Shown: positions 7,798-42,219 of the stretch, in pieces
Position numbering within the stretch: the stretch's first letter is position 1
Layout of the letters: each line of letters starts with the position of its first letter
Source: Candidatus Caldarchaeum sp.
GTDB taxonomy: Archaea; Thermoproteota; Nitrososphaeria_A; Caldarchaeales; Caldarchaeaceae
Direction: 5' to 3'
Length of the DNA stretch: 51,764 bases
Assembly: GCA_038831915.1 (NCBI GenBank)
Contig: JAWBKB010000010.1
Location: forward strand, 1 to 51,764
Made by a program: the position numbers and the translations under genes
The notes under the pieces: generated by a model
Database searches by the model: none
What the model saw: the letters and a program-made list of their open reading frames with translations, nothing else
What the model was told of the DNA's origin: nothing

Positions 7798-8495
7798 CTT
7801 TGCCTGATTTTTTCAGAGTTGAGAAGAGCTATTCCAGACCCTTCGTAAACGATTTTCCCTTGTTCGAGGACGTAGGCTCTATCTGCTGTCTGTAGAGCCA
7901 GGGACGAATCCTGTTCGACGACGAGAATAGAAATACCTTGCCTTTCTCGGATTTCCCGTATTTTTTCGAAAACAGTTCTCCGTGCTATCGGTGCGAGGCC
8001 GACGCTCGGCTCGTCGAGCAAAAGTACTCGGGGACGTGCCATCAAGGCCCTCGCGATGGCTACCATCTGCTGCTCGCCTCCGCTAAGGGTTCCGGCTAGC
8101 TGTTTTCTTCTTTTTTCGATGATGGGGAAGAGATCGGCGACCATTCTGTAATCATCCATGATCCCGTTTTTGTCTTTCCGCGTATAGGCGCCTGACATGA
8201 CGTTTTCATAGACGGTCATGTCGGGGAAGAGTCTTCTTCTTTCAAGCGATAGCATGAGGCCTTTTCTGACTTTTTCGTAGGGCGGCAGCTTCGTGACGTC
8301 CTCGTTTATCAACGTGATTTTGCCCGACTTGATTGTTGCGAGCCCCACCAACGCCAGCATGAGAGTTGTTTTTCCAGCGCCGTTCGGCCCTATGACGGCC
8401 ACGATTTCTTTCTCCCGCACCGTAAGGTTGATGTCTTCGATGACCGTGACAGGCCCGTAACCAGCTATCAAGTTCTCTACTTCGAGAACAGTCAT
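7782..8495 (-). CDS. livF: Branched-chain-type ABC transporter ATPase (LivF-like)
   Basis: GPNGAGKT, LSGGEQQM, LLLDEPS, VEQ. Confidence 0.9.
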   Translation of the reverse strand: MTVLEVENLIAGYGPVTVIEDINLTVREKEIVAVIGPNGAGKTTLMLALVGLATIKSGKITLINEDVTKLPPYEKVRKGLMLSLERRRLFPDMTVYENVMSGAYTRKDKNGIMDDYRMVADLFPIIEKRRKQLAGTLSGGEQQMVAIARALMARPRVLLLDEPSVGLAPIARRTVFEKIREIRERQGISILVVEQDSSLALQTADRAYVLEQGKIVYEGSGIALLNSEKIRQSYIGI

Positions 8496-9212
8496 CTAAA
8501 CCACCTGCGATGTTCCGAGGTAGGCTTTGATAACCAAGTCGCTTTGAGCCACATCTTCCGGAGCACCTTCAAAGATTAGTTTACCTTGGTCCATTACTAA
8601 AACGCGTTGAACCAATTTCATCAGCTCCCGAAGCCTGTGCTCTATGATGACTAGGGTTCCTCCCTGTGCGACATATTCTTTTAGTACTACGAAAACTTCT
8701 TCGATTTCGGCGACAGTCAGTCCTCCGAAGGGCTCGTCTAACAGAAGCATGGTGGGCTTCGCTATCAAGCCGCGCGCGACCTCAAGCTTTTTCAGTTCTC
8801 CGTGTGTAAGAAGCGTGGTTTGAAGGTCTCTTTTCTCGTATAGGCCGAGCTTTTTCAGCAAGTCGGATGCATAGGTTTCGTCGAAGTTGTTGCCTCGGAC
8901 TGTCATGGGGGCCATAAGGTTCTGCTTAACCGTGAGAGATTTGAAGGGCCTCACTATTTGGAAGGTTCGGACAAGTCCTTTCAAAGCACGGTGGTAGGTT
9001 TTCGCATTTGTGATGTCCTCGCCGTTAAAGTAGATTTTTCCAGAATCTGGTTTTTCCGTTCCTGATAGAAGCGAGAAAAGAGTTGTTTTCCCCGCGCCGT
9101 TCGGCCCGATGATTCCGAGAATTTCGTTCTTTTCAACTGACATCGAAACGTTGTCGACAGCCGTGATTCCGCCGAACCTTTTAACCAGATTTTCAGCTTT
9201 TAGGAGCGGCAT
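8496..9212 (-). CDS. livG: Branched-chain-type ABC transporter ATPase (LivG-like)
   Basis: GPNGAGKTT, RTFQIVRPF, LLLDEP, IEH and C-terminal AYLG. Confidence 0.9.
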   Translation of the reverse strand: MPLLKAENLVKRFGGITAVDNVSMSVEKNEILGIIGPNGAGKTTLFSLLSGTEKPDSGKIYFNGEDITNAKTYHRALKGLVRTFQIVRPFKSLTVKQNLMAPMTVRGNNFDETYASDLLKKLGLYEKRDLQTTLLTHGELKKLEVARGLIAKPTMLLLDEPFGGLTVAEIEEVFVVLKEYVAQGGTLVIIEHRLRELMKLVQRVLVMDQGKLIFEGAPEDVAQSDLVIKAYLGTSQVV

Positions 9213-10128
9213 AGACCTTCTTCCTCAAATAGCCAACTATTCCGCTTGGAAAGAGCATGAATATAGCCAGCGCTAGCGCGGAATAGATCAGCAGCCGTGA
9301 CCTTACGAGGATTTCTATTTTCAGGGTTTCGATGAGTGTTTGGATGATGTAGGCTCCTACAACCGGGCCGATTACCGTGGCTCTTCCTCCGAGCAAAGTC
9401 ATCAACAACGGAAGGCTTGCCTTCTCCAGTTCATAGGTTGCCGGGCTGACGACACCGTTCAAATAACCATAGAGAGCACCTGCGATTCCGGCGATGAAAA
9501 CGCTGATGGCGAGTGCTATTAGCTTGTATCTTGGAACATCTATACCGGCGGCTCTAGCAGCCACTTCGTCGTCTTTTATACATGTGAAAATTATGCCAAG
9601 CCTGCTACGGACGATGACGTAGGTTGCAACGACGCCGGCCGCCACCAACGCGAGACTTATCAGGTAAAATGTCGCGGCCGAGTCAACTAGTGGCGGAATT
9701 CCGAATATGCCATCATGACCGCCGAGCTGCGGCAAAGCGTTCGTTATCTGGTAGGCAATAACAGGTATGACCAGTGTTACGAGGGCGAAGAAATGCCCGC
9801 GCAGCTTGAGGCTTGGAAGCCCGATTAAGCAACTAAGCCCTGTGACGATTATTGCTCCGAGAAAAGTCGCTGCCAGCGGCGGCACCCCCCAGTTTAAAGT
9901 GAGCAATGCAGCGGCGTAACCTCCTCCTGCGAAGAAAAACGAATGACCGAGGCTAAGTAAACCCATGTAGCCAGATAGGATGTTCCAGCTTATCGCCAAC
10001 AAAGCAAAGATGTTTGTCAGAGTTAAGATGAAAATCAGAAACCGGAGGTTGAAGCCTACCGGTATCACGGCCAGCAAAACAAATACGACCGCCAATACTG
10101 CCAACACGATTTTGTCTACGGTTTTCAA
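9193..10128 (-). CDS. livM: Branched-chain-type ABC permease (LivM-like)
   Basis: Hydrophobic; GYMGLLSLGH, LRGHFFALVT, IKDDEVAA. Confidence 0.88.
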   Translation of the reverse strand: MKTVDKIVLAVLAVVFVLLAVIPVGFNLRFLIFILTLTNIFALLAISWNILSGYMGLLSLGHSFFFAGGGYAAALLTLNWGVPPLAATFLGAIIVTGLSCLIGLPSLKLRGHFFALVTLVIPVIAYQITNALPQLGGHDGIFGIPPLVDSAATFYLISLALVAAGVVATYVIVRSRLGIIFTCIKDDEVAARAAGIDVPRYKLIALAISVFIAGIAGALYGYLNGVVSPATYELEKASLPLLMTLLGGRATVIGPVVGAYIIQTLIETLKIEILVRSRLLIYSALALAIFMLFPSGIVGYLRKKVYAAPKS

Positions 10129-32852: not shown

Positions 32853-34037
32853 ATGAAAGTTGCGTTAGCTTACAGCGGCGGGCTCGACACCACGGTCATG
32901 ATTAAATGGATTAGCCAGCGGTACAACGCCGAAGTTATTACCGTAACGGTTGACGTCGGGCAGGAGGAAAACTTCGATGAGATAGAGGAGAAAGCATACA
33001 AAAGCGGAGCTTTAAAACACTACAGCATCGACGCCAAAAACAAGTTCGCGGAAGAATACGTCGCGAGAGCCATCAAAGCCAACGCCCTATATGAAAAAAG
33101 TTATCCTCTTTCGTCTGCTTTGAGCAGGCCTTTGATAGCTGAAGAAGTGGCTAAAGTTGCGTTGAAAGAGGGCTGTGATGCTGTTGCTCACGGCTGCACG
33201 GGTAAAGGCAACGACCAGCTGAGATTTGACGCGACGTTCGCATCGGTTGCTCCAGATTTGAAAATCATAGCACCGGTTCGAGAATGGAACATGAGCCGCG
33301 ACGAAGAAATCGAATACGCTCTCGAACACAACCTTCCCGTAAACCCTGTCAAAAGTCGTTTTAGCGTCGACGAAAACCTGTGGGGCAGGTCCATCGAGGC
33401 CGCTGAACTAGAAGACCCTTGGACGGAGCCACCTCAAGAAGCTTTCAAGCTAGTTAAACCGATTAGCCAAACCCCAGACAAGCCAGAAGAAATCGTTGTA
33501 GGATTCAAGGATGGAATCCCCGTCTCGCTGAACGGCGAATCTTTGAAGCTTGTAGAACTCATAAGAAAACTGAATCAATTGGGTGGTTTGCATGGATACG
33601 GGTTGGTGGACCATGTTGAGGACAGGGTGGTGGGGCTAAAGTCTCGAGAAGTTTACGAGCTTCCAGCCGCTTTGATTTTGATCAACGCCCACGCCGACCT
33701 TGAGAAAATGTTCCTAGGAAGAAGGTTTCAAGCGTTTAAGCAAATCGTCGAAAGCACTTGGGCTGAACTTGTGTACTCAGGTCTTTGGGCTGATCCTCTG
33801 CGGAAAGCCCTCGACGAGTTCATCGACTATTCTCAGCAAGGGGTTGACGGCGAGGTTCGGATGCGTCTCTACAAAGGTTCTTTGAGAATCATCGGGAGAC
33901 GCGGTGAAAAACCTCTCTACTCGCCGAAATACATCACTTACGCGAGTGATAGTGTTTTCGACCAGAAGGCCGGCGAAGGCTTTTCCAAACTCTGGAGTCT
34001 TGAAACACGTTTGAGTAGGTTGAAGGAGAAGGAATAG
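32853..34037 (+). CDS. argG: Argininosuccinate synthase
   Basis: LAYSGGLDT, AHGCTGKGNDQ, SVDENLWGRS, KSREVYE. Confidence 0.97.
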   Translation: MKVALAYSGGLDTTVMIKWISQRYNAEVITVTVDVGQEENFDEIEEKAYKSGALKHYSIDAKNKFAEEYVARAIKANALYEKSYPLSSALSRPLIAEEVAKVALKEGCDAVAHGCTGKGNDQLRFDATFASVAPDLKIIAPVREWNMSRDEEIEYALEHNLPVNPVKSRFSVDENLWGRSIEAAELEDPWTEPPQEAFKLVKPISQTPDKPEEIVVGFKDGIPVSLNGESLKLVELIRKLNQLGGLHGYGLVDHVEDRVVGLKSREVYELPAALILINAHADLEKMFLGRRFQAFKQIVESTWAELVYSGLWADPLRKALDEFIDYSQQGVDGEVRMRLYKGSLRIIGRRGEKPLYSPKYITYASDSVFDQKAGEGFSKLWSLETRLSRLKEKE

Positions 34038-34038
34038 G

Positions 34039-35475
34039 ATGGAAGCGCCGCACCGCGGCGGGATGCTTAAACGACCGATGGATGAGAAAGCGGCGATATA
34101 CACGTCTTCCGCATCATTTGACCATGAAATAATTGAAGCAACCGTATACGTTAACGCGGCTCACATCAAAGCGCTTGCGAAGCTCGGCGTGATCTCCCAA
34201 ACAGCAGCCTTGGACGCTTTACAGGAGCTGAAATCATTCGTCGAAAAGAGGCCACAAATCCCAGCGACCGTCGAAGATGTCCACATTTTTCTAGAATCAC
34301 TTGTTTCACGGTCGGTTCCCGAGGTAGGTGAAATGCTCGCCCTAGGGAAAAGCCGGAACGACGCCGTCGTCGCCGCGATCAAAATCGAAGCAAAAAGGAG
34401 AATCTACGGCACTTCACTAACGTTGCTAAACACTGTCGAGTCGCTTCTGCAGAGAAGCTTAGCGGAAGCCGAAACAGTATTTCCTGTTTACACTCATCTT
34501 CAGCGAGCAGCCCCCGCCACGTTCGGCTTTCTTCTCCAGGCCTACGCTGTTCGGTTTCTACGCGGCGTTCACCACCTTCTCGAGGCCGTTAAGCCTCTCG
34601 AAGAAAGTCCTCTCGGCTCAGCAGCGGTGGCGGGAACTTCTGTCCCGCTTGACCGTAAATATCTCGCGGAAATATTGGGATTCAAAACAGCCAGCGTCAA
34701 CGCGTTAGAGGCGACTGCTGCACGGGATTTCCTAATCCCCGTGTTATCTGCTTTGCTTCAGACATCCCTCGTTCTTTCATCATTTGCCGAAGAACTGGTT
34801 TTGTATTGCTCAGATGAGTTCGGTTTTTTGACCATGCCGGACGAATATTCCGCAACCAGCAGCATCATGCCTCAGAAACGCAATCCGGTCGTCGCGGAAA
34901 TCATGCGTACAAAGGTTGGTGAAATTCTAGGTCTCCTATGTTCTGTTTCGATGATTTTGGGTAGGCAGCCGAGTGGTTACAGCCTCGACCTGCAGCAAAC
35001 CACGCCCAAATTATGGAAAGCCTTTGAAGAAATTCAGACGAGCATGTCTCTGCTCGGGGAGATTGTCAAAGATGTCCGGATAAACGCGGAAAAAGCTTTG
35101 CGTGCATGTGGTCCGCCTGCAGCTGCAGTGGAAGTCGCAAACCACCTGACGTTATCGAAGAAACTTCCTTTCCGGAAAGCACATCAAATAGCTGGAAAAA
35201 TTAGTGCCGCTATAGCAAGCGGTGGCTTGGACGACCACACTCTGAAACAGATTTTTTCAGAGCATGGACTTGACAGCCCTTACGAAATCGATGAAATCTT
35301 GAATCTGATGGAGCCAACTCGAGTTGTTCGCAGGTATGCCGTGGCCGGTTCCGCCAACCCAGCTTACGTTAGGGAGGCCGGCTACCAGCTATTAAAGCAA
35401 GTAGCAGATTTAAGAGACGAAGTGGATAGACGGAGTCGCGAGTTTGAAAACGTTTTAATGACTGTTTTGGAGTGA
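34039..35475 (+). CDS. argH: Argininosuccinate lyase
   Basis: EDVH, GKSRND, YTHLQRA, SSIMPQKRNP. Confidence 0.95.
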   Translation: MEAPHRGGMLKRPMDEKAAIYTSSASFDHEIIEATVYVNAAHIKALAKLGVISQTAALDALQELKSFVEKRPQIPATVEDVHIFLESLVSRSVPEVGEMLALGKSRNDAVVAAIKIEAKRRIYGTSLTLLNTVESLLQRSLAEAETVFPVYTHLQRAAPATFGFLLQAYAVRFLRGVHHLLEAVKPLEESPLGSAAVAGTSVPLDRKYLAEILGFKTASVNALEATAARDFLIPVLSALLQTSLVLSSFAEELVLYCSDEFGFLTMPDEYSATSSIMPQKRNPVVAEIMRTKVGEILGLLCSVSMILGRQPSGYSLDLQQTTPKLWKAFEEIQTSMSLLGEIVKDVRINAEKALRACGPPAAAVEVANHLTLSKKLPFRKAHQIAGKISAAIASGGLDDHTLKQIFSEHGLDSPYEIDEILNLMEPTRVVRRYAVAGSANPAYVREAGYQLLKQVADLRDEVDRRSREFENVLMTVLE

Positions 35476-36543
35476 ATCGAATTCTTTCGCGAATTCGACG
35501 TAGATTTTTACGGCCGACATGATGTCTTTGATTTCGACTGTTTCCATCGCTGTGTGAGCAAGCGTTGAATCGCCGGGCCCGCATGCCACGATGTTCTCTG
35601 TCAAGGCTACGAGTGTGTTCATGTCGCTGGTTCCTGTCTTTTTCACGATTTTCGGTTTGAGGCCGAGACGTAGCATCGCTCTTTGTAGGCCTCGGGCCGC
35701 GAGATTTGTCACGCTGGTTACGACGGGTTCTGTGATGTCGACAACCTGCATTTCGCAGTCGCTTACTTTGACGAATTCTTCGAGCTTTGAGATGATTTCC
35801 TTAGACCTATAGGGGTGGGGGAAACGAATGTTGAGGCTTCCTTCGGCTTTTTCCGGGATACGGCTTATCCAGTCGCCTGCGTGAAGGGTTGTCAGCGCAG
35901 ATGTTACTTCTTCGTATCTTTTGCCGCCAAACTCCTGTTTGACCAAGCTCCATAGGTTGAGGATTTTCTCAAGCGCTGAATCAGCGATGTATGGAGCCGA
36001 AGCGTGACCGCCTTTCGCGTATGCTTGGATTTTAACGCTTACACTTCCTCTGTACGAAACCGCGATTCCAACTGTTCCTGTCGGCTCGCCGATTATTATC
36101 GCGTCCGCCTCAATCTCATCTTCGACAAGTTTTTTCGCACCGCTACCCATTCCCTCCTCGTCAACGAGTCCAGCTACTACAAGCCTCACATTGTTAAGCT
36201 TGTCCGCTAACTGGCCGCCGGCAAGCAGCATCGCTGACAACGGGCCTTTCGCGTCGACCGCTCCTCTTCCGCTAATCTTTCCCTCAGTAACCTTGACACG
36301 TAGTTCGCCTGGAACTGTGTCGACATGGCTCACGAACATGAGGTTGCGGTTCCCTCGGCCTACGGCTGCGAAATAATTGCCCACTTCATCCCTCCAAACA
36401 TCTTTGTATCCGAGGTTTTCGCATACGCGATACCATGTTCGTTCCAGCCTTCTTTCCTCGCCTGGAGGAGTGTACACCTCCAGTAGCTGGACAAGCGTTG
36501 AAACGACATCTTCACGTTGCACTTCGACTGAGCTCAATTTCAT
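35455..36543 (-). CDS. lysK: [LysW]-lysine/ornithine hydrolase (M20 family)
   Basis: SHVDTVPG, GRGAVDAKG, DEE, IGEP, GTSDMN, GPGDS..AH. Start approximate. Confidence 0.88.
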   Translation of the reverse strand: MKLSSVEVQREDVVSTLVQLLEVYTPPGEERRLERTWYRVCENLGYKDVWRDEVGNYFAAVGRGNRNLMFVSHVDTVPGELRVKVTEGKISGRGAVDAKGPLSAMLLAGGQLADKLNNVRLVVAGLVDEEGMGSGAKKLVEDEIEADAIIIGEPTGTVGIAVSYRGSVSVKIQAYAKGGHASAPYIADSALEKILNLWSLVKQEFGGKRYEEVTSALTTLHAGDWISRIPEKAEGSLNIRFPHPYRSKEIISKLEEFVKVSDCEMQVVDITEPVVTSVTNLAARGLQRAMLRLGLKPKIVKKTGTSDMNTLVALTENIVACGPGDSTLAHTAMETVEIKDIMSAVKIYVEFAKEFDSLQNSH

Positions 36544-36621
36544 TCCGGCGGAGTCTGTGTCGAAAAATTCTGTATTAAGTGTTTGCACAAGGTTTAAAGG
36601 TCTTGTTCAGCTGGTTAGGAT

Positions 36622-37964
36622 ATGAAACGGATAAGAACAGTTATCATGGGGGCTGCTGGACGCGACAGAGCTTGAAAAAGCTCCGCGAATTCCATAACTT
36701 CAACGTCGTTTTCAAAGACAATCAACTGTATGAAGTGGTGGCGTTCACCGCGGCCCAGATACCTGGAATAGCTGGACGAATCTACCCAGCCAGCTTGGCG
36801 GGCCCACTTTATCCTGACGGCATTCCCATTTACGACGAATCGAAACTTCCCGAGATCATTAAGGAAAAGAACGTCGACCTCGTTGTTTTCTCATACAGCG
36901 ACTTGACTCACGAAGAGTTGATGCACAAGGCTTCCCTTGTATTGGCCCTTGGTGCTGATTTTTTGCTGTTGGGCCCGAAGTCGACGATGCTTCGGCCGTC
37001 GAAAAAAACCATCGCGGTTACGGCTGTTAAAACGGGCGCTGGCAAAAGCACGATTTCACGATATTTTGTCAAACTACTCCGCGAAATGGGGCTTAAACCG
37101 GTCGTCGTTCGCCACCCCATGCCCTACGGTGTCTTGGAGAAACAAGTTGTTCAAAGGTTTTCGACGTACGCCGATTTAGATGAACAGGGATGCAGCATCG
37201 AGGAAAGAGAGGAAATAGAGCCTCATTTGAGAGAAAATACTATTGTTTACGCGGGCGTCGACTATTTGTCCGTTTTGAAGGAAGCTGAGATGGAAGGAGA
37301 CGTGATTTTATGGGACGGTGGTAACAACGATTTCCCGTTTTTCCGCCCCGACCTTCACGTCACTGTCGTCGATGCCACCAGGCCGGGTCTCGAGACGTCG
37401 AGCTACCCTGGAGAGACAAACATTCTAATGGCCGACTTGATCATCATACACAAGGCGGACAAAAGTAGTGCGGAGAAAATTGAGGAGCTGAAAAATGCCT
37501 TGCATCATCTTAACCCGAGGGCTGAAATCGTAGTCACGGGGTCGACGACGTGTGCCGATGAATTCTTCAACATCAAAGGAAAACGAGTTGCTGTCATTGA
37601 AGACGGGCCTTCAGTGACACATGGTGGAATGGCTGTGGGAGCCGCTTTCGACTACGCGGTTAAGGCTGGGGCCGAGGTCGTGGACCCTAAGCCATACGCC
37701 GTCGGAGCCATCGCGGAAATGTATAAGCAGTATGGGCACATCGGGCCGGTTGTTCCAGCCATCGGATACACTTTACAACAGCTACGAGACCTTGAAGAAA
37801 CTTTGAAACGAATATCGGCAGACACCATTGTTTCCTCGAGCCCCGCAGACCTTTCCAAAATCATTCGGCTCAACAAACCATATGTCAAAGTTTGGTTCGA
37901 AGCGGTTCAACTTTCTGGCAAAAACTTGTCAGACATTATTCGGCTACGTTTGCTGGAGAGTTAG
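36622..37964 (+). CDS. arcE: COG2403/cDPG-synthetase-like P-loop protein, probable arginine synthetase; spliced join(36622..36666,36690..37964), 439 aa
   Basis: Spliced N-terminus MKRIRTVIMGAAGRD|FHNFN; FTAAQIP, AVKTGAGKS, VRHPMPYG, IEEREE, WDGGNND, EDGPSVTHGGM; sits in an Arg biosynthesis locus. Function is inferred. Confidence 0.75.
36667..36689 (+). other. 23-nt BHB intron within an mRNA
   Basis: TGGA-CGCG-AC|A-GAGCTT-GAAA-AAGCTC-CGCG-AA|T-TCCA is a canonical BHB. Removal restores the frame and motif and deletes an in-frame TGA (36673-36675). Confidence 0.88.
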
Positions 37965-39116
37965 AAATTCGTCGGCGGTCTTGCGAATTGTTTCAGCTGC
38001 AAACAACATGTCTTTTTCCTCGATGACGTAGGGTGGGAGGAACCTCAGAACAGTCAGTCCCGCCTTAAAGCCGATTAAGCCATTTGCCTGAAGCATTTTG
38101 ATGAAAGTTGTGGGAGTTGTCCTCATTTCAAGGCCGATCATGAGACCGGCGTTGCGAAAAGCTCGGAAAATTCGGCTTTTTTCTTCGACGACCGCTTTAA
38201 GTTCTTCAGTAATCATGGCGCCTTTCACTTCGGCCTGTTGTGGAACGTTTTCATCGGTCAGGACTTCGACGGCTGCTGTTATTGCGGCGAGTGCGAGCGG
38301 GTTGCCTCCATAGGTGGAGCCATGGTCAGTTTCTTTTAATTTGGAGACGATTTCCTCTGTGACTGCGATTAAACTCGCTGGGAACCCTCCTGCGACGGCT
38401 TTCGCCGTCGTCAGGATGTCGGGCTTTATTTCGGCCCGCTGATGGTTCCATACATATCCTGTTCTTCCAAAACCAGATTGAATTTCATCCACGATGATGA
38501 AAGCACCGACTTCACGAGCTTTTTTCTCCAAAGCTTTCATGAAGTCCACCGACGCGGGAATGATGCCGCCCTCGCCTTGAACAGGTTCAAAAATTACCGC
38601 CGCGAATTCCTTAGTTAGTTTGCGATCGACTTCCTCGGGATTGTTGAAAGGCGCAAACACAGCCTCCAGCGGAAAAGGGTCGAAGCCTTCTCGGTATTTG
38701 CTGCTCCACGTTGCTGATAGTGCGGCCATGGTTCGGCCGTGAAAACCGTTGTTGAACGCGAGAATTTTCCTTCTTCCCGTCAGCTTTCTGCTCAATTTTA
38801 ATGCAAGCTCAACAGCTTCTGAACCACTGTTAAGGAAAAAAACGTTGGTCAAATGACGTGGAAGTATTCGTCCCAGTCTGTCAAGGCATCTATCGAGAAT
38901 CTCCGTGTCAAAAGCAGGGCTGATCGTCATGTATTTGTCCAGCTGTTCTTTTAACGCGTTCACGATTTTCGGATGGCGGTGGCCTAGAAAAGCAGCTCCG
39001 TAACCCATGTAGAAATCCAGGTACCGCCGACCTTCTGCATCCCAGACATACTGGCCTTCAGCCTTTGCAATCCGTAGGCCTCGAGGAGCCGCGAACCTAA
39101 TCAGCGACGGAGTCAT
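37944..39116 (-). CDS. lysJ: [LysW]-aminoadipate/glutamate semialdehyde transaminase
   Basis: NSGSEAVE, FHGRT, EPVQGEGG, DEIQSGFGRTG, AKAVAGG, HGSTYGGNP. Confidence 0.9.
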   Translation of the reverse strand: MTPSLIRFAAPRGLRIAKAEGQYVWDAEGRRYLDFYMGYGAAFLGHRHPKIVNALKEQLDKYMTISPAFDTEILDRCLDRLGRILPRHLTNVFFLNSGSEAVELALKLSRKLTGRRKILAFNNGFHGRTMAALSATWSSKYREGFDPFPLEAVFAPFNNPEEVDRKLTKEFAAVIFEPVQGEGGIIPASVDFMKALEKKAREVGAFIIVDEIQSGFGRTGYVWNHQRAEIKPDILTTAKAVAGGFPASLIAVTEEIVSKLKETDHGSTYGGNPLALAAITAAVEVLTDENVPQQAEVKGAMITEELKAVVEEKSRIFRAFRNAGLMIGLEMRTTPTTFIKMLQANGLIGFKAGLTVLRFLPPYVIEEKDMLFAAETIRKTADEFLTLQQT

Positions 39117-39958
39117 CTTCTAACCACTTGCACTGTTGATTCGACGATTTTCGCAGCCAAGTTGTAACCAGTGACCAGCACTGTGTTTCTGAATTCGACG
39201 ACTCCGTTCACTTCGTTCACCAATAGGCCTTTTTCCTTTGATTCGAGGATGTCCACGCCCAATACACCGCCTCCGACGGCATCACCAGCTTTTACGACGA
39301 TTTCTCGGAGTTCATCTGTCACCGGACATGGTTGTGCTCTCCCCCCTAAAGCGGTGTTGGTTTTCCACATTTTACTAACCCTGTAGATCGCGACCGGGAC
39401 TTCACCCCAGACATAGAACGCTCGAATGTCTCGCTCAGGTTTGTCCACATACTCTTGAAGGTAGTGGACTTTCATCATCGGGTTAGGCATATTCTCTCTC
39501 AATTCGAGAATATCGACTAGCGACTGTTCGTCGAAAGCTCTTGCGATGTTTCGACCCCAGCTACCGTAGATGGGTTTGACCACGACGGGAAATCCCATCT
39601 TTTTCGCAATTTCCACCGCTGTTTGTCTTGTTAAAGCGACAGCTGTCATGGGTGCCGGAACGCCTCGGCGAGCCAGCATGCATGAAGTTATTAGTTTGTC
39701 AGCGGTGTTTCGCAGAACGTCGAGGCCGTTCACCACCAAGTTGCCGAACCGCTCCAAAATAGTGGTTGTCGCGAGAGCTCTGCTGTAGCTGACACATCGC
39801 TGGATTACGAAGTCATGTTCATGTCCGTTTCCTTCGTTTATCCAAAATTCCTTACCCACTACGTGCAGCGGCTTAGCGACATGTCCCGCGTCGTTAATCG
39901 CCTGAATGAGTGATTTTTCCTCAAACCGGACGACGTCGTAGGCGAGCCCGATATTCAT
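39113..39958 (-). CDS. lysX: ATP-grasp aminoadipate/glutamate--LysW ligase (LysX/ArgX)
   Basis: RFEEK, QRCVS, KPIYGSWGR, QEYVDKPERDIR, WKTNTALGG, NEVN..EF. Confidence 0.92.
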   Translation of the reverse strand: MNIGLAYDVVRFEEKSLIQAINDAGHVAKPLHVVGKEFWINEGNGHEHDFVIQRCVSYSRALATTTILERFGNLVVNGLDVLRNTADKLITSCMLARRGVPAPMTAVALTRQTAVEIAKKMGFPVVVKPIYGSWGRNIARAFDEQSLVDILELRENMPNPMMKVHYLQEYVDKPERDIRAFYVWGEVPVAIYRVSKMWKTNTALGGRAQPCPVTDELREIVVKAGDAVGGGVLGVDILESKEKGLLVNEVNGVVEFRNTVLVTGYNLAAKIVESTVQVVRR

Positions 39959-39961
39959 CGA

Positions 39962-40138
39962 CTACTGGCCCCAGTCCTCCGCGACCTCTTCAGCTACACG
40001 GAGCATAGGAACGTTTTTTTCATCGACGAAATATTCGAGTTGTGCTCCACATTCACCACATTCAAACAGCTCGCCGGGCAACGCATCAGATGGAACAACC
40101 ATTGAACCGCCGCAGACAGGACAATTCAAGTCTGCCAT
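39962..40138 (-). CDS. lysW: Amino-group carrier protein LysW/ArgW, 58 aa (missing from ORF track)
   Basis: MADLNCPVCGG...ECGECGAQLE...AEEVAEDWGQ*; GGTGA Shine-Dalgarno upstream; directly before lysX. Confidence 0.93.
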   Translation of the reverse strand: MADLNCPVCGGSMVVPSDALPGELFECGECGAQLEYFVDEKNVPMLRVAEEVAEDWGQ

Positions 40139-40258
40139 ACACTTTTCACCTTGCAGTCCGTAGCAAAGGCGTTATTTAAATCGTTACATGCGGGCAAAAA
40201 TCTTGGCAAAAGATTTAACCGGGTCTACGATTTTCGAAAATATTCTACGTTCCCGATG

Positions 40259-41053
40259 TTATCTGATGATGACCGTACCTCTCCCGACGTCGGCGTTACC
40301 GATAGGGTCGTCAACAAGCCCCGAACAGATATGCGCTGAGCCAACTCCGTTTTCGACAGCTTTCGCAGCCATCATCAGCTTCCGATTCATTCCAGCGCCA
40401 ACCTTTTCCGCCAACTCCAAAGCTTCTTGCACGCTCAGCTTCCTCACCACTTCACCGTCAACGATCACGCCTTCAACATCAGTCAATAGATATAGTTTTT
40501 CAGCTTTGACGGCCGAAGAAATCGCTGACGCCGCTGAATCACCGTCAACGTTCAACATCTCCCCTTCGATACCTAATGCAAGAGGTGAAATCACAATCAA
40601 AACACCGATATCTAGGAGTGTTCTAACAAAATCACCATCCACTTCAACTATAGTGCCTGTATAACCTCCGTCGACTACTCTTTTCCTACCTCTTTCATCG
40701 ACTATGACGATTTTCTTTTTACGAGTAGCTTTCAGAACAGATGCGTCTATTCCTGAAAGGTTTACCGCTTTGACTCCCCGGCTGTTAAGGTAAGCCGCGA
40801 TTTCTTTCCCCAGTTTACCCGCCATAACCATCGCGTAAACTTCAATCTCTTCTGAATCAGTCAACCTGCTTCGAACACCCGACGGAGAAACAACTATTTT
40901 CGGCTCGATGCCAAGCCGTTTTTCAAAACTCGAAACTATCTCTCCACCTCCATGAACGAAGATGACTTTCCTGTGTCGATGAAGGGCGACTGAATCGAGA
41001 ATCTTGTCCCGGTTAGAAGCCAGAGCACGTCCGCCGGCCTTGACCACGATCAC
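40259..41053 (-). CDS. lysZ: [LysW]-aminoadipate/glutamate kinase
   Basis: VVKAGG, VHGGG, SPSGVRSR, GGYTG, LNVDGD, GAGMNRK. Confidence 0.92.
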   Translation of the reverse strand: MIVVKAGGRALASNRDKILDSVALHRHRKVIFVHGGGEIVSSFEKRLGIEPKIVVSPSGVRSRLTDSEEIEVYAMVMAGKLGKEIAAYLNSRGVKAVNLSGIDASVLKATRKKKIVIVDERGRKRVVDGGYTGTIVEVDGDFVRTLLDIGVLIVISPLALGIEGEMLNVDGDSAASAISSAVKAEKLYLLTDVEGVIVDGEVVRKLSVQEALELAEKVGAGMNRKLMMAAKAVENGVGSAHICSGLVDDPIGNADVGRGTVIIR

Positions 41054-41086
41054 GGCTCCATTTTTGAATGCGTGATGATTTTAAGA

Positions 41087-42145
41087 TTAGGCAGGCCTGA
41101 GCGGGGGGTTATTCAATCCAGTTTTTTCGTCAAACCCATGCATGATGTTGAAGCACTGAACCGCCTGGCCCGCAGCTCCTTTCATCAAGTTATCTATCGC
41201 CGCAAAGAGAGCGGCTCTGCCAATTCTGTTTTCCACGGCGAACCCAATGTCAGCGAAATTGCTTCCAATTACGTATTTTGGGTCCGGATATTTGAAAGGT
41301 GCTCCGTGCACGATTCTTACGAAGGGTTCTTTTCCGTAGCGGTTTGTGTAAGCTTTCCAAATGGTTGTGTCGTCTATGGTTGTGTACGCGAGCCAGACGT
41401 GAGAGGTCGCCATCGCACCCCGGACGGCTCCGACCGCGTGCGGAACCAAGGCAATACGCAGTCTGCGACCAGCTATAATGGAAAGCTCTTGCTCGACTTC
41501 TGCAACGTGTCGATGTCCTTCCGCTTCATAGGGCCTCATCACGTTGGCCCTTTCGGGATGATGAGTTCCCAGCGATGGTTTGATGCCGGCTTCGCTGCTT
41601 CCAACTTTCACGTCGACTGCGATGTGGTCGAGGTCGATGAGCTTGGTCTCCACCGCTGGTATGAGTGAGAGCAATGCCGCGGTGGAATTGCATCCGGGAC
41701 AAGCGATTAGATTGGCGTTTCTAATTTTTTCACGGTATAGTTCTGGGAGTCCGTAAACGGCTTTTTCAACCAAGTCGGGCCTTGGATGCGTGGTTTCATA
41801 CCATGTTTTGTAATCGTCGAGGTTTTTCAGCCGAAAGTCCGCGCTCAAGTCGATTATTTTGAGCCCATTTTCAAGAAGCCGAGGGGTTAAAGTGGATGAT
41901 ATTCCGTGCGGCGTGTTGACGAAAACGGTTTCGCATTTTTCGACTATCGACTCTATGGATACTTCGCTGAATTTCAGTCCCTTGTAGAATCCGCGGAGTT
42001 GGGGATGAATCGCTGTGAAAGGCTTGCCCGCGTATTCTCTCGAAGTCACGTAAGTTACCTCGACGCGGGGATGAACGGCCAGAATTCTGAGAAGCTCGCC
42101 GCCTGTGTATCCCGAGCCACCAATGACGCCGACTTTCACTGTCAC
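41087..42145 (-). CDS. lysY: [LysW]-aminoadipate/glutamyl-phosphate reductase (LysY/ArgC)
   Basis: GGSGYTGGEL, DLSADFRL, YGLPE, ACPGC, HRHVAE, DNLMKGAAGQA. GTG 42145 is the likely start. Confidence 0.92.
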   Translation of the reverse strand: MTVKVGVIGGSGYTGGELLRILAVHPRVEVTYVTSREYAGKPFTAIHPQLRGFYKGLKFSEVSIESIVEKCETVFVNTPHGISSTLTPRLLENGLKIIDLSADFRLKNLDDYKTWYETTHPRPDLVEKAVYGLPELYREKIRNANLIACPGCNSTAALLSLIPAVETKLIDLDHIAVDVKVGSSEAGIKPSLGTHHPERANVMRPYEAEGHRHVAEVEQELSIIAGRRLRIALVPHAVGAVRGAMATSHVWLAYTTIDDTTIWKAYTNRYGKEPFVRIVHGAPFKYPDPKYVIGSNFADIGFAVENRIGRAALFAAIDNLMKGAAGQAVQCFNIMHGFDEKTGLNNPPLRPA

Positions 42146-42219
42146 AGCGGAGCCACGGAGACTTCGCGTGGGCACCATTTTATAAAGGCTAATACCCACG
42201 CACAGCTGGGAAAACCCAG

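Follow-up and report, generated by a model that had tools for sequence, protein, structure and literature searches.

A probable bulge-helix-bulge intron in a P-loop protein gene of Candidatus Caldarchaeum and other Thermoproteota

A reading frame in two parts and its predicted fold

We analysed a 51,764-nt stretch of Candidatus Caldarchaeum sp. DNA (contig JAWBKB010000010.1; hereafter the window), in which a gene for a P-loop protein, at positions 36622-37964, appears to be interrupted close to its 5′ end by a 23-nt intron with a bulge-helix-bulge (BHB) structure at its borders. To our knowledge, the intron of cbf5 has been the only coding-sequence intron established in Archaea since 2002, when Watanabe et al. 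reportedly described it in the cbf5 pre-mRNA of Crenarchaeota. The frame that opens at ATG 36622 encodes MKRIRTVIMGAAGRD and then, in the translation of the window, RA and a stop. A different frame, which opens at 36690, reads FHNFNVVFKD... and continues for 424 codons to its end at 37964. The elements of the locus, including a helix-bulge-helix-bulge-helix (hBHBh′) motif in the minimum-free-energy (MFE) structure, are the following.

36622..36666, + strand: exon 1, 15 codons, encoding MKRIRTVIMGAAGRD
36657..36694, + strand: hBHBh′ motif of the MFE structure
36667..36689, + strand: predicted intron of 23 nt, with predicted cuts after 36666 and after 36689, between the second and third base of each bulge
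36690..37964, + strand: exon 2 (P0001), 424 codons and a stop, for a P-loop (CobW/HypB/UreG-like) protein

In the ViennaRNA MFE fold of 36645-36706, the outer helix is TGGA/TCCA (36657-60 / 36691-94) and the central 4-bp helix is CGCG/CGCG (36661-64 / 36684-87). Two 3-nt bulges, ACA (36665-67) and AAT (36688-90), accompany the central helix, and the intron hairpin GAGCTT-GAAA-AAGCTC occupies 36668-83 (stem 36668-73 / 36678-83, loop 36674-77). The energy of this fold is -19.2 kcal/mol (z = -2.33), and 3 of 200 shuffled sequences fold equally well. A first-pass annotation, made from the letters of the window alone, had proposed an ideal BHB at 36657-36694; every element recurred at its position, and the MFE fold is identical to the proposed one. 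Canonical cuts join codon 15 (Asp) to the Phe codon at 36690 and rebuild in silico the family motif GAAGRD/FHNFN (the slash marks the junction). Translation likewise reproduced the expected outcome of cutting after the second base of each bulge, a GRD/FHN junction within an open reading frame (ORF) of 439 aa (15 + 424).

How much does such a motif prove by itself? We scanned the whole 1.59-Mb genome (G000) for motifs of 12 pairs with inserts of up to ~250 nt, using as a decoy a mirror-repeat pairing rule with the same chance level, and obtained 8766 real versus 11536 decoy matches. The BHB motif taken alone is not above chance and proves nothing. Because the bare motif is as common as its decoy, the case rests on where the motif stands, at a conserved codon junction, and on what relatives show. 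No second copy of the 23-nt intron was found in the genome at up to 4 mismatches, and with this single occurrence we rejected the idea that it is a repeat or a mobile copy. An Rfam scan of 36400-36900 gave nothing relevant, its sole match being a chance small nucleolar RNA (E 0.55).

The insert among relatives and the constraint on its exons

The exon-2 protein was searched in 41 related genomes; the gene was found in 27, and the junction was read in all of these. An insert lies between the Asp and Phe codons in 15 of the 27, namely 13 of 13 genomes of the genus (G000-G012) and 2 of 2 of genus g3. GRDFHNFN is contiguous in the remaining 12, which belong to genus g2 of the same family and to genera g6, g8, g9 and g10. 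Within the family Caldarchaeaceae, where a family-wide search covered 18 genomes, yielded no additional ones and showed one (88% complete) to be without the gene, the insert is present in 15 of the 17 gene-bearing genomes. A prokaryote-wide set, consisting of the 80 best loci with one genome per species, contained 76 contiguous loci, one without the N-terminus and three that are interrupted. Two of these three are Caldarchaeum, and the third (L076:1465-1511) is a metagenome-assembled genome (MAG) labelled Bathyarchaeia, whose 21-nt insert folds as a BHB. Among 401 sampled Thermoproteota genomes, 153 have the gene, and we read the junctions of 120 not previously covered (left out were G375, G335 and G186, G045 and G235, whose N-terminus lies off the contig, and four unlisted matches). 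In 117 of the 120 the motif is contiguous; the other three (G054, G214 and G131; loci L146, L148 and L174), all of family f17, carry 29-nt inserts at the same junction, and two further members of this family, G082 and G096, are contiguous there. The expectation that orthologues would keep a contiguous GRDFHN is borne out by 76/80 prokaryotic loci and 117/120 Thermoproteota genomes. In total, inserts of 21-30 nt occupy this site in 19 genomes or MAGs from three lineages, as against roughly 190 further homologues without an interruption. Metagenome contigs were scanned with a degenerate pattern in which a gap of 0-30 nt was permitted; the 80 listed of 115 stretches comprise 72 gapless sequences and 8 with inserts of 22-30 nt, two new insert variants being among the latter. 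No near-identical intron-less copy of an intron-bearing gene was found among the 72 gapless stretches, the best match being 100% over only 31 nt.

The inserts of the 19 interrupted homologues measure 21, 23, 24, 25, 26, 27, 29 or 30 nt. Nine are multiples of three, and all nine contain an in-frame stop; the other 10 shift the frame. Therefore, the insert is not kept translatable. The outer helix has 3-4 bp in all 19 homologues, with GGA/TCC invariant and a fourth pair present in 8 of the 17 distinct sequences. The central helix has 4 bp in all 19 (CGCG/CGCG, CGUG/CACG and once CGUG/CAUG) and is 100% paired in the 17 distinct sequences. There are always two bulges of exactly 3 nt, and an intron hairpin of 3-9 bp, the sequence of which varies freely, is found in every case. 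In 19 of 19, cutting at the canonical positions yields a complete GAY codon for Asp and TTC codon for Phe, restoring GRD/FHN in silico. In alignment A1, 93.7% of cells are paired in the named structure, versus 31-56% with the partners slid by 1-3 columns. In half of the pairs (7/14) both partners change. The central helix alternates between C-G and U-A, and covariation extends to all six hairpin pairs. The covariation score is 0.362 against a shuffle mean of 0.179 and values of 0.04-0.13 for the slid controls; none of 500 shuffles reaches the observed score, although the sequences in A1 are related and this count is hence not a probability, so that the slid control, which is clear, is the fairer comparison. 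The hBHBh′ structure is maintained by compensatory change. Orthologues had been suggested as the place to look for intron presence and compensatory changes, and both were found, in 19 interrupted homologues and at those 7 of 14 pairs.

The exons carry a record of their own. In most of 20 intron-bearing genes, a start codon lies 15-16 codons ahead of the junction. Across the last 12 codons of exon 1, there are 9 extra nucleotide states at first, 4 at second and 23 at third codon positions, and the synonymous variation includes four codons for Gly -6, four for Ala -5 and three for Ile -8, while the residues IMGAAGRD are invariant or nearly so. Exon 1, judged from this pattern, is under purifying selection at the protein level and encodes the N-terminal motif of the family. 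At the same time, every one of the 20 intron-bearing genes uses GGA for the Gly and CGY for the Arg that take part in the pairing of the outer and central helices. Among 129 intron-less genes, GGA is used in 46 and CGY in 24, and the full BHB-compatible context occurs in only two. By these counts, RNA pairing freezes the exon codons in the presence of the insert and not otherwise, and such freezing would be hard to explain unless the BHB is used.

The protein, its neighbours and the splicing machinery

What kind of protein would depend on this intron? Its residues 116-281 match Pfam PF02492 (CobW/HypB/UreG) weakly, at 27.8 bits, above the gathering cut-off of 20.7, and an NCBIfam search of the protein gave nothing usable. 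A sequence search of the PDB returned only the cyclic 2,3-diphosphoglycerate (cDPG) synthetase of Methanothermus fervidus, over residues 199-307 alone (E 1.3e-15). The best Foldseek match was again a cDPG synthetase, 8oru (E 1.8e-19; 16% identity; template modelling score 0.45), followed by LpxK and HypB, and homologues are named in databases as GTPase, GTP-binding protein or cyclic 2,3-diphosphoglycerate synthase. On these similarities, we regard it as an uncharacterised P-loop protein and a distant relative of cDPG synthetase, for which the latter name is not warranted. An AlphaFold model of an intron-less Aigarchaeota orthologue (P0074; 28-row alignment A2) reached a predicted local distance difference test score (pLDDT) of 91.8 and a predicted template modelling score (pTM) of 0.90. 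In this model, strand 1 spans residues 5-10, a Gly-rich loop residues 11-14 and helix 1 residues 15-24. The splice junction maps to the start of helix 1, right after the strand and the loop; the residues of exon 1 make up strand beta-1 together with the Gly-rich loop, and reach one turn into helix alpha-1. With the junction at this point, the N-terminal domain therefore owes its first strand and loop to exon 1, which the model indicates to be structurally integral to the protein.

The intron-bearing gene is surrounded by a LysW-type arginine/lysine cluster (window 32853-42199), which contains argG, argH, an M20 deacylase, the intron-bearing gene itself, a class-III aminotransferase, a LysX-like ATP-grasp protein, an amino-acid kinase and a semialdehyde dehydrogenase. 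This neighbourhood hints at a role of the P-loop family in the arginine/lysine pathway. The first-pass annotation had called the product a metabolic enzyme, a label that is unproven for this uncharacterised P-loop protein.

The same genome encodes the enzymes that splicing of a BHB would call for. There are two matches to PF01974 (EndA paralogues; 94.9 and 58.2 bits), on contigs C19 and C1, and one to PF01139 (RtcB; 563.9 bits). The EndA genes occupy C19:18968-19216 and C1:102378-102635, and rtcB occupies C12:43662-44999. Two EndA paralogues were also present in all five other genomes checked, with or without the intron. In genome G013, of the intron-less genus g2, contig C10 carries an EndA paralogue (9779-10036, + strand) about 420 nt from the orthologue of the P-loop gene (8109-9356, - strand), an adjacency that may be coincidence; the endonuclease genes of G000 sit on other contigs. 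Passages of the Ca. Caldiarchaeum subterraneum genome paper describe a heterotetrameric endonuclease, 13 intron-bearing tRNAs and rRNA introns, and these passages report no intron in a protein gene (PMC3082918). ARAGORN predicted introns in 18 of 39 tRNAs of G000, a tally of unvetted predictions that includes implausible introns of 636 and 1312 nt and fits the intron-rich tRNA set reported for the genus.

Moreover, cbf5 of G000 is itself split by a 14-nt BHB mini-intron (L113:1485-1498; contig C2, ~60491-60504, outside the window). It has the helices GGGA/TCCC and CCCU/GGGG and the bulges UGA and AAA, and it falls between letters one and two of the catalytic Asp codon (GGTL/DP), the very position described for the crenarchaeal cbf5 intron (PMC2738675). 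An insert of ~13-22 nt occurs at this site in 27 of 30 Caldarchaeales loci; the three of genus g10 are contiguous. The literature consulted places the cbf5 intron only in Desulfurococcales and Sulfolobales. Comparison of these loci indicates that the Caldarchaeales lineage very probably already splices one mRNA, that of cbf5.

Are further mRNA introns hidden in this genome, as the first-pass annotation had surmised? The scan of G000 lent this no support: apart from the cbf5 intron, BHBs joining ORFs were in no excess over the decoy. A strict motif scan with an ORF-joining filter left 1104 real versus 1181 decoy candidates, and a relaxed scan with a codon-usage filter left 559 versus 775. At every stringency, real candidates were about as many as decoys or fewer (42/43, 12/18, 6/10, 3/3, 22/30 and 8/12), and the 22 best real ones resemble ordinary junctions between the end of one gene and the start of the next. 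The filter discarded even the true intron at 36667-36689, because the exon-2 frame stays open for 37 codons upstream, and the scan therefore cannot exclude further introns in G000. The combination of motif and ORF logic is insufficient for finding introns without homology.

Three further features bear on where translation of the gene has been thought to begin.

36579..37964, + strand: mechanical ORF of 461 aa in the exon-2 frame, from GTG 36579
36593..36598, + strand: TTTAAA, possible TATA box read from the sequence, centred ~26 nt upstream of ATG 36622
36672..37964, + strand: public gene call P0002, 430 aa, starting MKKLRE at a TTG inside the intron and lacking VIMGAAGRD

We call TTTAAA a possible TATA box on the basis of the usual archaeal promoter spacing, and CTTTAA(A/G) boxes stand at approximately the same distance in G001 and G011. 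If it is one, the mRNA would possibly be leaderless and GTG 36579 would lie outside the transcript. The exon-2 frame is closed 5-6 codons ahead of FHNFN in G009, G012 and G010 (open frames of 423-424 aa), and its extension to 36579 in the present genome is open by chance. Gene callers had been expected to mis-start the gene at 36579. The public call is indeed mis-started, but at TTG 36672, even though the 461-aa ORF exists. Other public calls for the gene in Caldarchaeum have 430, 408, 404, 403, 365 and 363 aa, as against 437-451 aa in intron-less homologues; on this comparison, all of the public annotations examined for the gene in the genus are wrong at the N-terminus.

The whole stretch, with the 23 nt, is covered by DNA contigs from two studies (runs X1 and X5), and one or the other may be the source of the window itself. 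At window 36556, the X5 contig is 2 bases shorter, as a result of strain variation or an assembly difference; the site is a short divergent region between the M20 gene and the intron-bearing gene, and the intron is untouched. In RNA run X10, a 173-nt contig matches window 36728-36760 over these 33 bases only, with 3 differences and flanks unlike the window. Its probable source is some other organism's homologue, and we did not use it as evidence.

Splicing, rival explanations and the origin of the intron

How might the two frames be expressed as one protein? We propose that the pre-mRNA would fold into the hBHBh′ motif, and that a two-subunit EndA would cut it between the second and third base of each 3-nt bulge. 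RtcB would then join the exons and release the 23-nt intron, probably as a circle. Only from the spliced mRNA would the complete protein of 439 aa be made, including the N-terminal strand and the Gly-rich loop (VIMGAAGRD/FHNFN); the unspliced mRNA would yield a 17-aa peptide or a protein that is truncated or wrong at its N-terminus. We regard the anatomy of the locus, its conservation and covariation, the purifying selection on exon 1, the constraint at the RNA level and the presence of the enzymes as established, and it is cleavage and ligation that we infer. In our judgement, 36667-36689 is with high probability a genuine BHB intron of the gene at 36622-37964, and one that is productively spliced. 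The proposal of an archaeal mRNA intron outside cbf5 is likewise supported by the shared site, the variable length, the stops, the covariation, the synonymous variation in exon 1 and the frozen pairing codons.

Several observations weigh against splicing. Perfect motifs, with 12 Watson-Crick pairs, number 68 in the genome, exactly as many as their decoys (68); the z-score of the fold (-2.33) is modest; and 9 of the 17 distinct sequences leave the outer helix open at its outermost pair. The 461-aa ORF makes translation without splicing conceivable in this genome. The sole RNA run with the locus, X10, has contigs over 36300-36549, 36952-37119 and 37636-37800 and none over 36555-36707, although these data are assembled contigs, which cannot show rare forms, and such coverage is neutral on splicing. 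Finally, no contig of the spliced form occurs among the 80 listed of the 115 metagenome stretches.

These last two observations might be read to mean that EndA cuts the BHB and that the exons are rarely or never religated, the outcome being mRNA decay or a regulatory switch, as in the decay initiated by the yeast tRNA endonuclease. Cleavage of mRNA without splicing is known for the yeast enzyme, TSEN, as described in passages of a review (PMC10485636), and no spliced RNA appears in the RNA contigs, none of which covers the intron, or in the listed metagenome stretches. However, exon 1 keeps the N-terminal residues of the family through synonymous changes, and the canonical cuts rebuild the invariant Asp and Phe codons in all 19 homologues; neither feature would persist without joining of the exons, and we consider this explanation very unlikely. 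We give equally little credence to the idea that no splicing takes place, that translation begins at an internal or alternative start (GTG 36579, TTG 36672 or one downstream), and that exon 1 is a leader peptide and the hairpin a translational regulator. The 461-aa ORF would permit it here, and the public annotation uses such starts (430, 408, 404, 403, 365 and 363 aa), but with the exon-2 frame closed 5-6 codons before FHNFN in G009, G012 and G010, strand 1, the Gly loop and more would be lost. Furthermore, the supposed leader peptide is a motif that is contiguous in about 190 homologues, and the 3-nt bulges and 4-bp spacing, kept in 19 of 19, would serve no role in a simple hairpin.

Translational bypassing seems still less plausible, to the point of being highly improbable. 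In this form of recoding, ribosomes would take off at the Asp codon and land before TTC, skipping 21-30 nt, as on gene 60 of phage T4; in its favour, a hairpin immediately follows the take-off site and the gap soon runs into stop codons. The triplet before exon 2, however, is an Asp codon (GAT) in only 4 of 19 homologues and GAA, GAG, GCA or GTA in the others. Therefore, matched take-off and landing codons are not conserved, whereas the geometry of the two bulges is. As for a pseudogene or an assembly artefact, the gene does read as frameshifted in a MAG, and the first-pass annotation had itself named an artefact as a refutation. The presence of the 23 nt in contigs of two studies and of inserts at the same junction in 18 other genomes excludes the artefact, 8 metagenome contigs add further inserts at this site, and the exons, both otherwise intact and under purifying selection, leave the pseudogene effectively refuted.

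Taking productive splicing as the preferred reading, when did the intron arise? We built a quick LG+G4 tree of 69 proteins. It retained 12 of 52 bacterial rows (every fourth) and excluded L030 and L031, which duplicate G005 and G011, as well as L020 and L093, which are incomplete. Intron-bearing genes stand at four places on this tree (the genus, g3, f17 and L076), and four changes of the intron label are needed. In approximately unbiased (AU) tests, a single clade of all 18 intron-bearing rows was not rejected (p 0.112), and a Caldarchaeaceae clade of g1 and g3 was better than the free tree (p 0.766). Therefore, gain and loss cannot be told apart. Within Caldarchaeaceae, one origin of the intron is likely on this tree; the other lineages may have gained it independently, inherited it or acquired the gene by transfer. 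A bolder idea, to which we assign a rather low probability, is that mRNA BHB introns are not a one-gene curiosity and have been gained repeatedly, or move, at sites whose codons supply half a BHB. The sharing of one site by three distant lineages would then reflect either an ancient intron that was lost many times or site-specific re-insertion, for instance reverse splicing by the endonuclease and ligase and subsequent recombination. Lying 45 nt into a probably leaderless mRNA, the intron could in addition gate the translation of an arginine-cluster enzyme on the RNA-splicing capacity of the cell.

The closest known counterpart is the cbf5 intron, for which cuts between the second and third bulge residues are described (Yokobori et al. 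2009, PMC2738675, in part). Both are short coding-sequence BHB introns with predicted cuts at that position, both are found in lineages with a two-subunit endonuclease, both are patchily distributed, and both are mis-annotated as frameshifts or truncations. The hosts differ, in that the present one is a P-loop enzyme gene in an arginine/lysine cluster and cbf5 is an RNA-modification enzyme; the present intron occurs in Caldarchaeales and two other Thermoproteota lineages, and its BHB is strict where that of cbf5 is relaxed. Splicing of cbf5 has been shown experimentally, whereas the present intron is known from sequence comparison. Beyond tRNA and rRNA, the tRNA splicing endonuclease also acts on an mRNA of Haloferax volcanii, through the BHB intron in the 5′ untranslated region of HVO_1309 (Schwarz et al. 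2020, PMC7714728). Since it is confined to the untranslated leader, that intron leaves the frame uninterrupted, unlike the one that splits a coding sequence here, and it was demonstrated by knock-down and in vitro cleavage (PMC7714728), a different footing from the comparative one of this study. Archaeal tRNA introns, canonical and non-canonical, share the hBHBh′ geometry, the size range and the enzymes, and passages of the genome paper show that the genus is known for many of them and for a heterotetrameric endonuclease (PMC3082918). Here, in contrast, the motif borders protein-coding exons and a tRNA body is absent; therefore, the exonic halves of the motif must satisfy codons (GGA CGY GAY / TTC CA) and pairing at once. 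The splicing of HAC1 and XBP1 by IRE1 and RtcB is similar in that a protein endonuclease removes a short, frame-changing intron independently of the spliceosome, with ligation by RtcB for XBP1, and the protein product is altered. It differs in its endonuclease, IRE1, in its twin stem-loops and in being cytoplasmic and regulated by stress.

Unconfirmed predicted introns in a virus and in Sulfolobus genomes are mentioned in passages of Yokobori et al. (PMC2738675), and a 2023 review, in the parts concerned, expects more such introns to be discovered (PMC10485636). Our literature searches, with subscription journals and supplements largely outside their scope, found neither this gene family nor any archaeal coding sequence besides cbf5 reported to contain a BHB intron. 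The mechanism is already established; what is new is the host gene, the lineages and the distribution over several of them. The finding adds to a known mechanism and does not reveal a new one, and should be notable to specialists in archaeal RNA processing, as it offers a second, independent host gene in several lineages with unusually clean comparative support. At least 19 natural variants provide a test set for the specificity of the endonuclease, and conserved short inserts at conserved motifs are a template for the search for hidden introns. The locus also indicates that RNA structure can hold exon codons fixed. If the mRNA is spliced as we propose, the tRNA splicing machinery would be needed for the expression of an ordinary enzyme gene.

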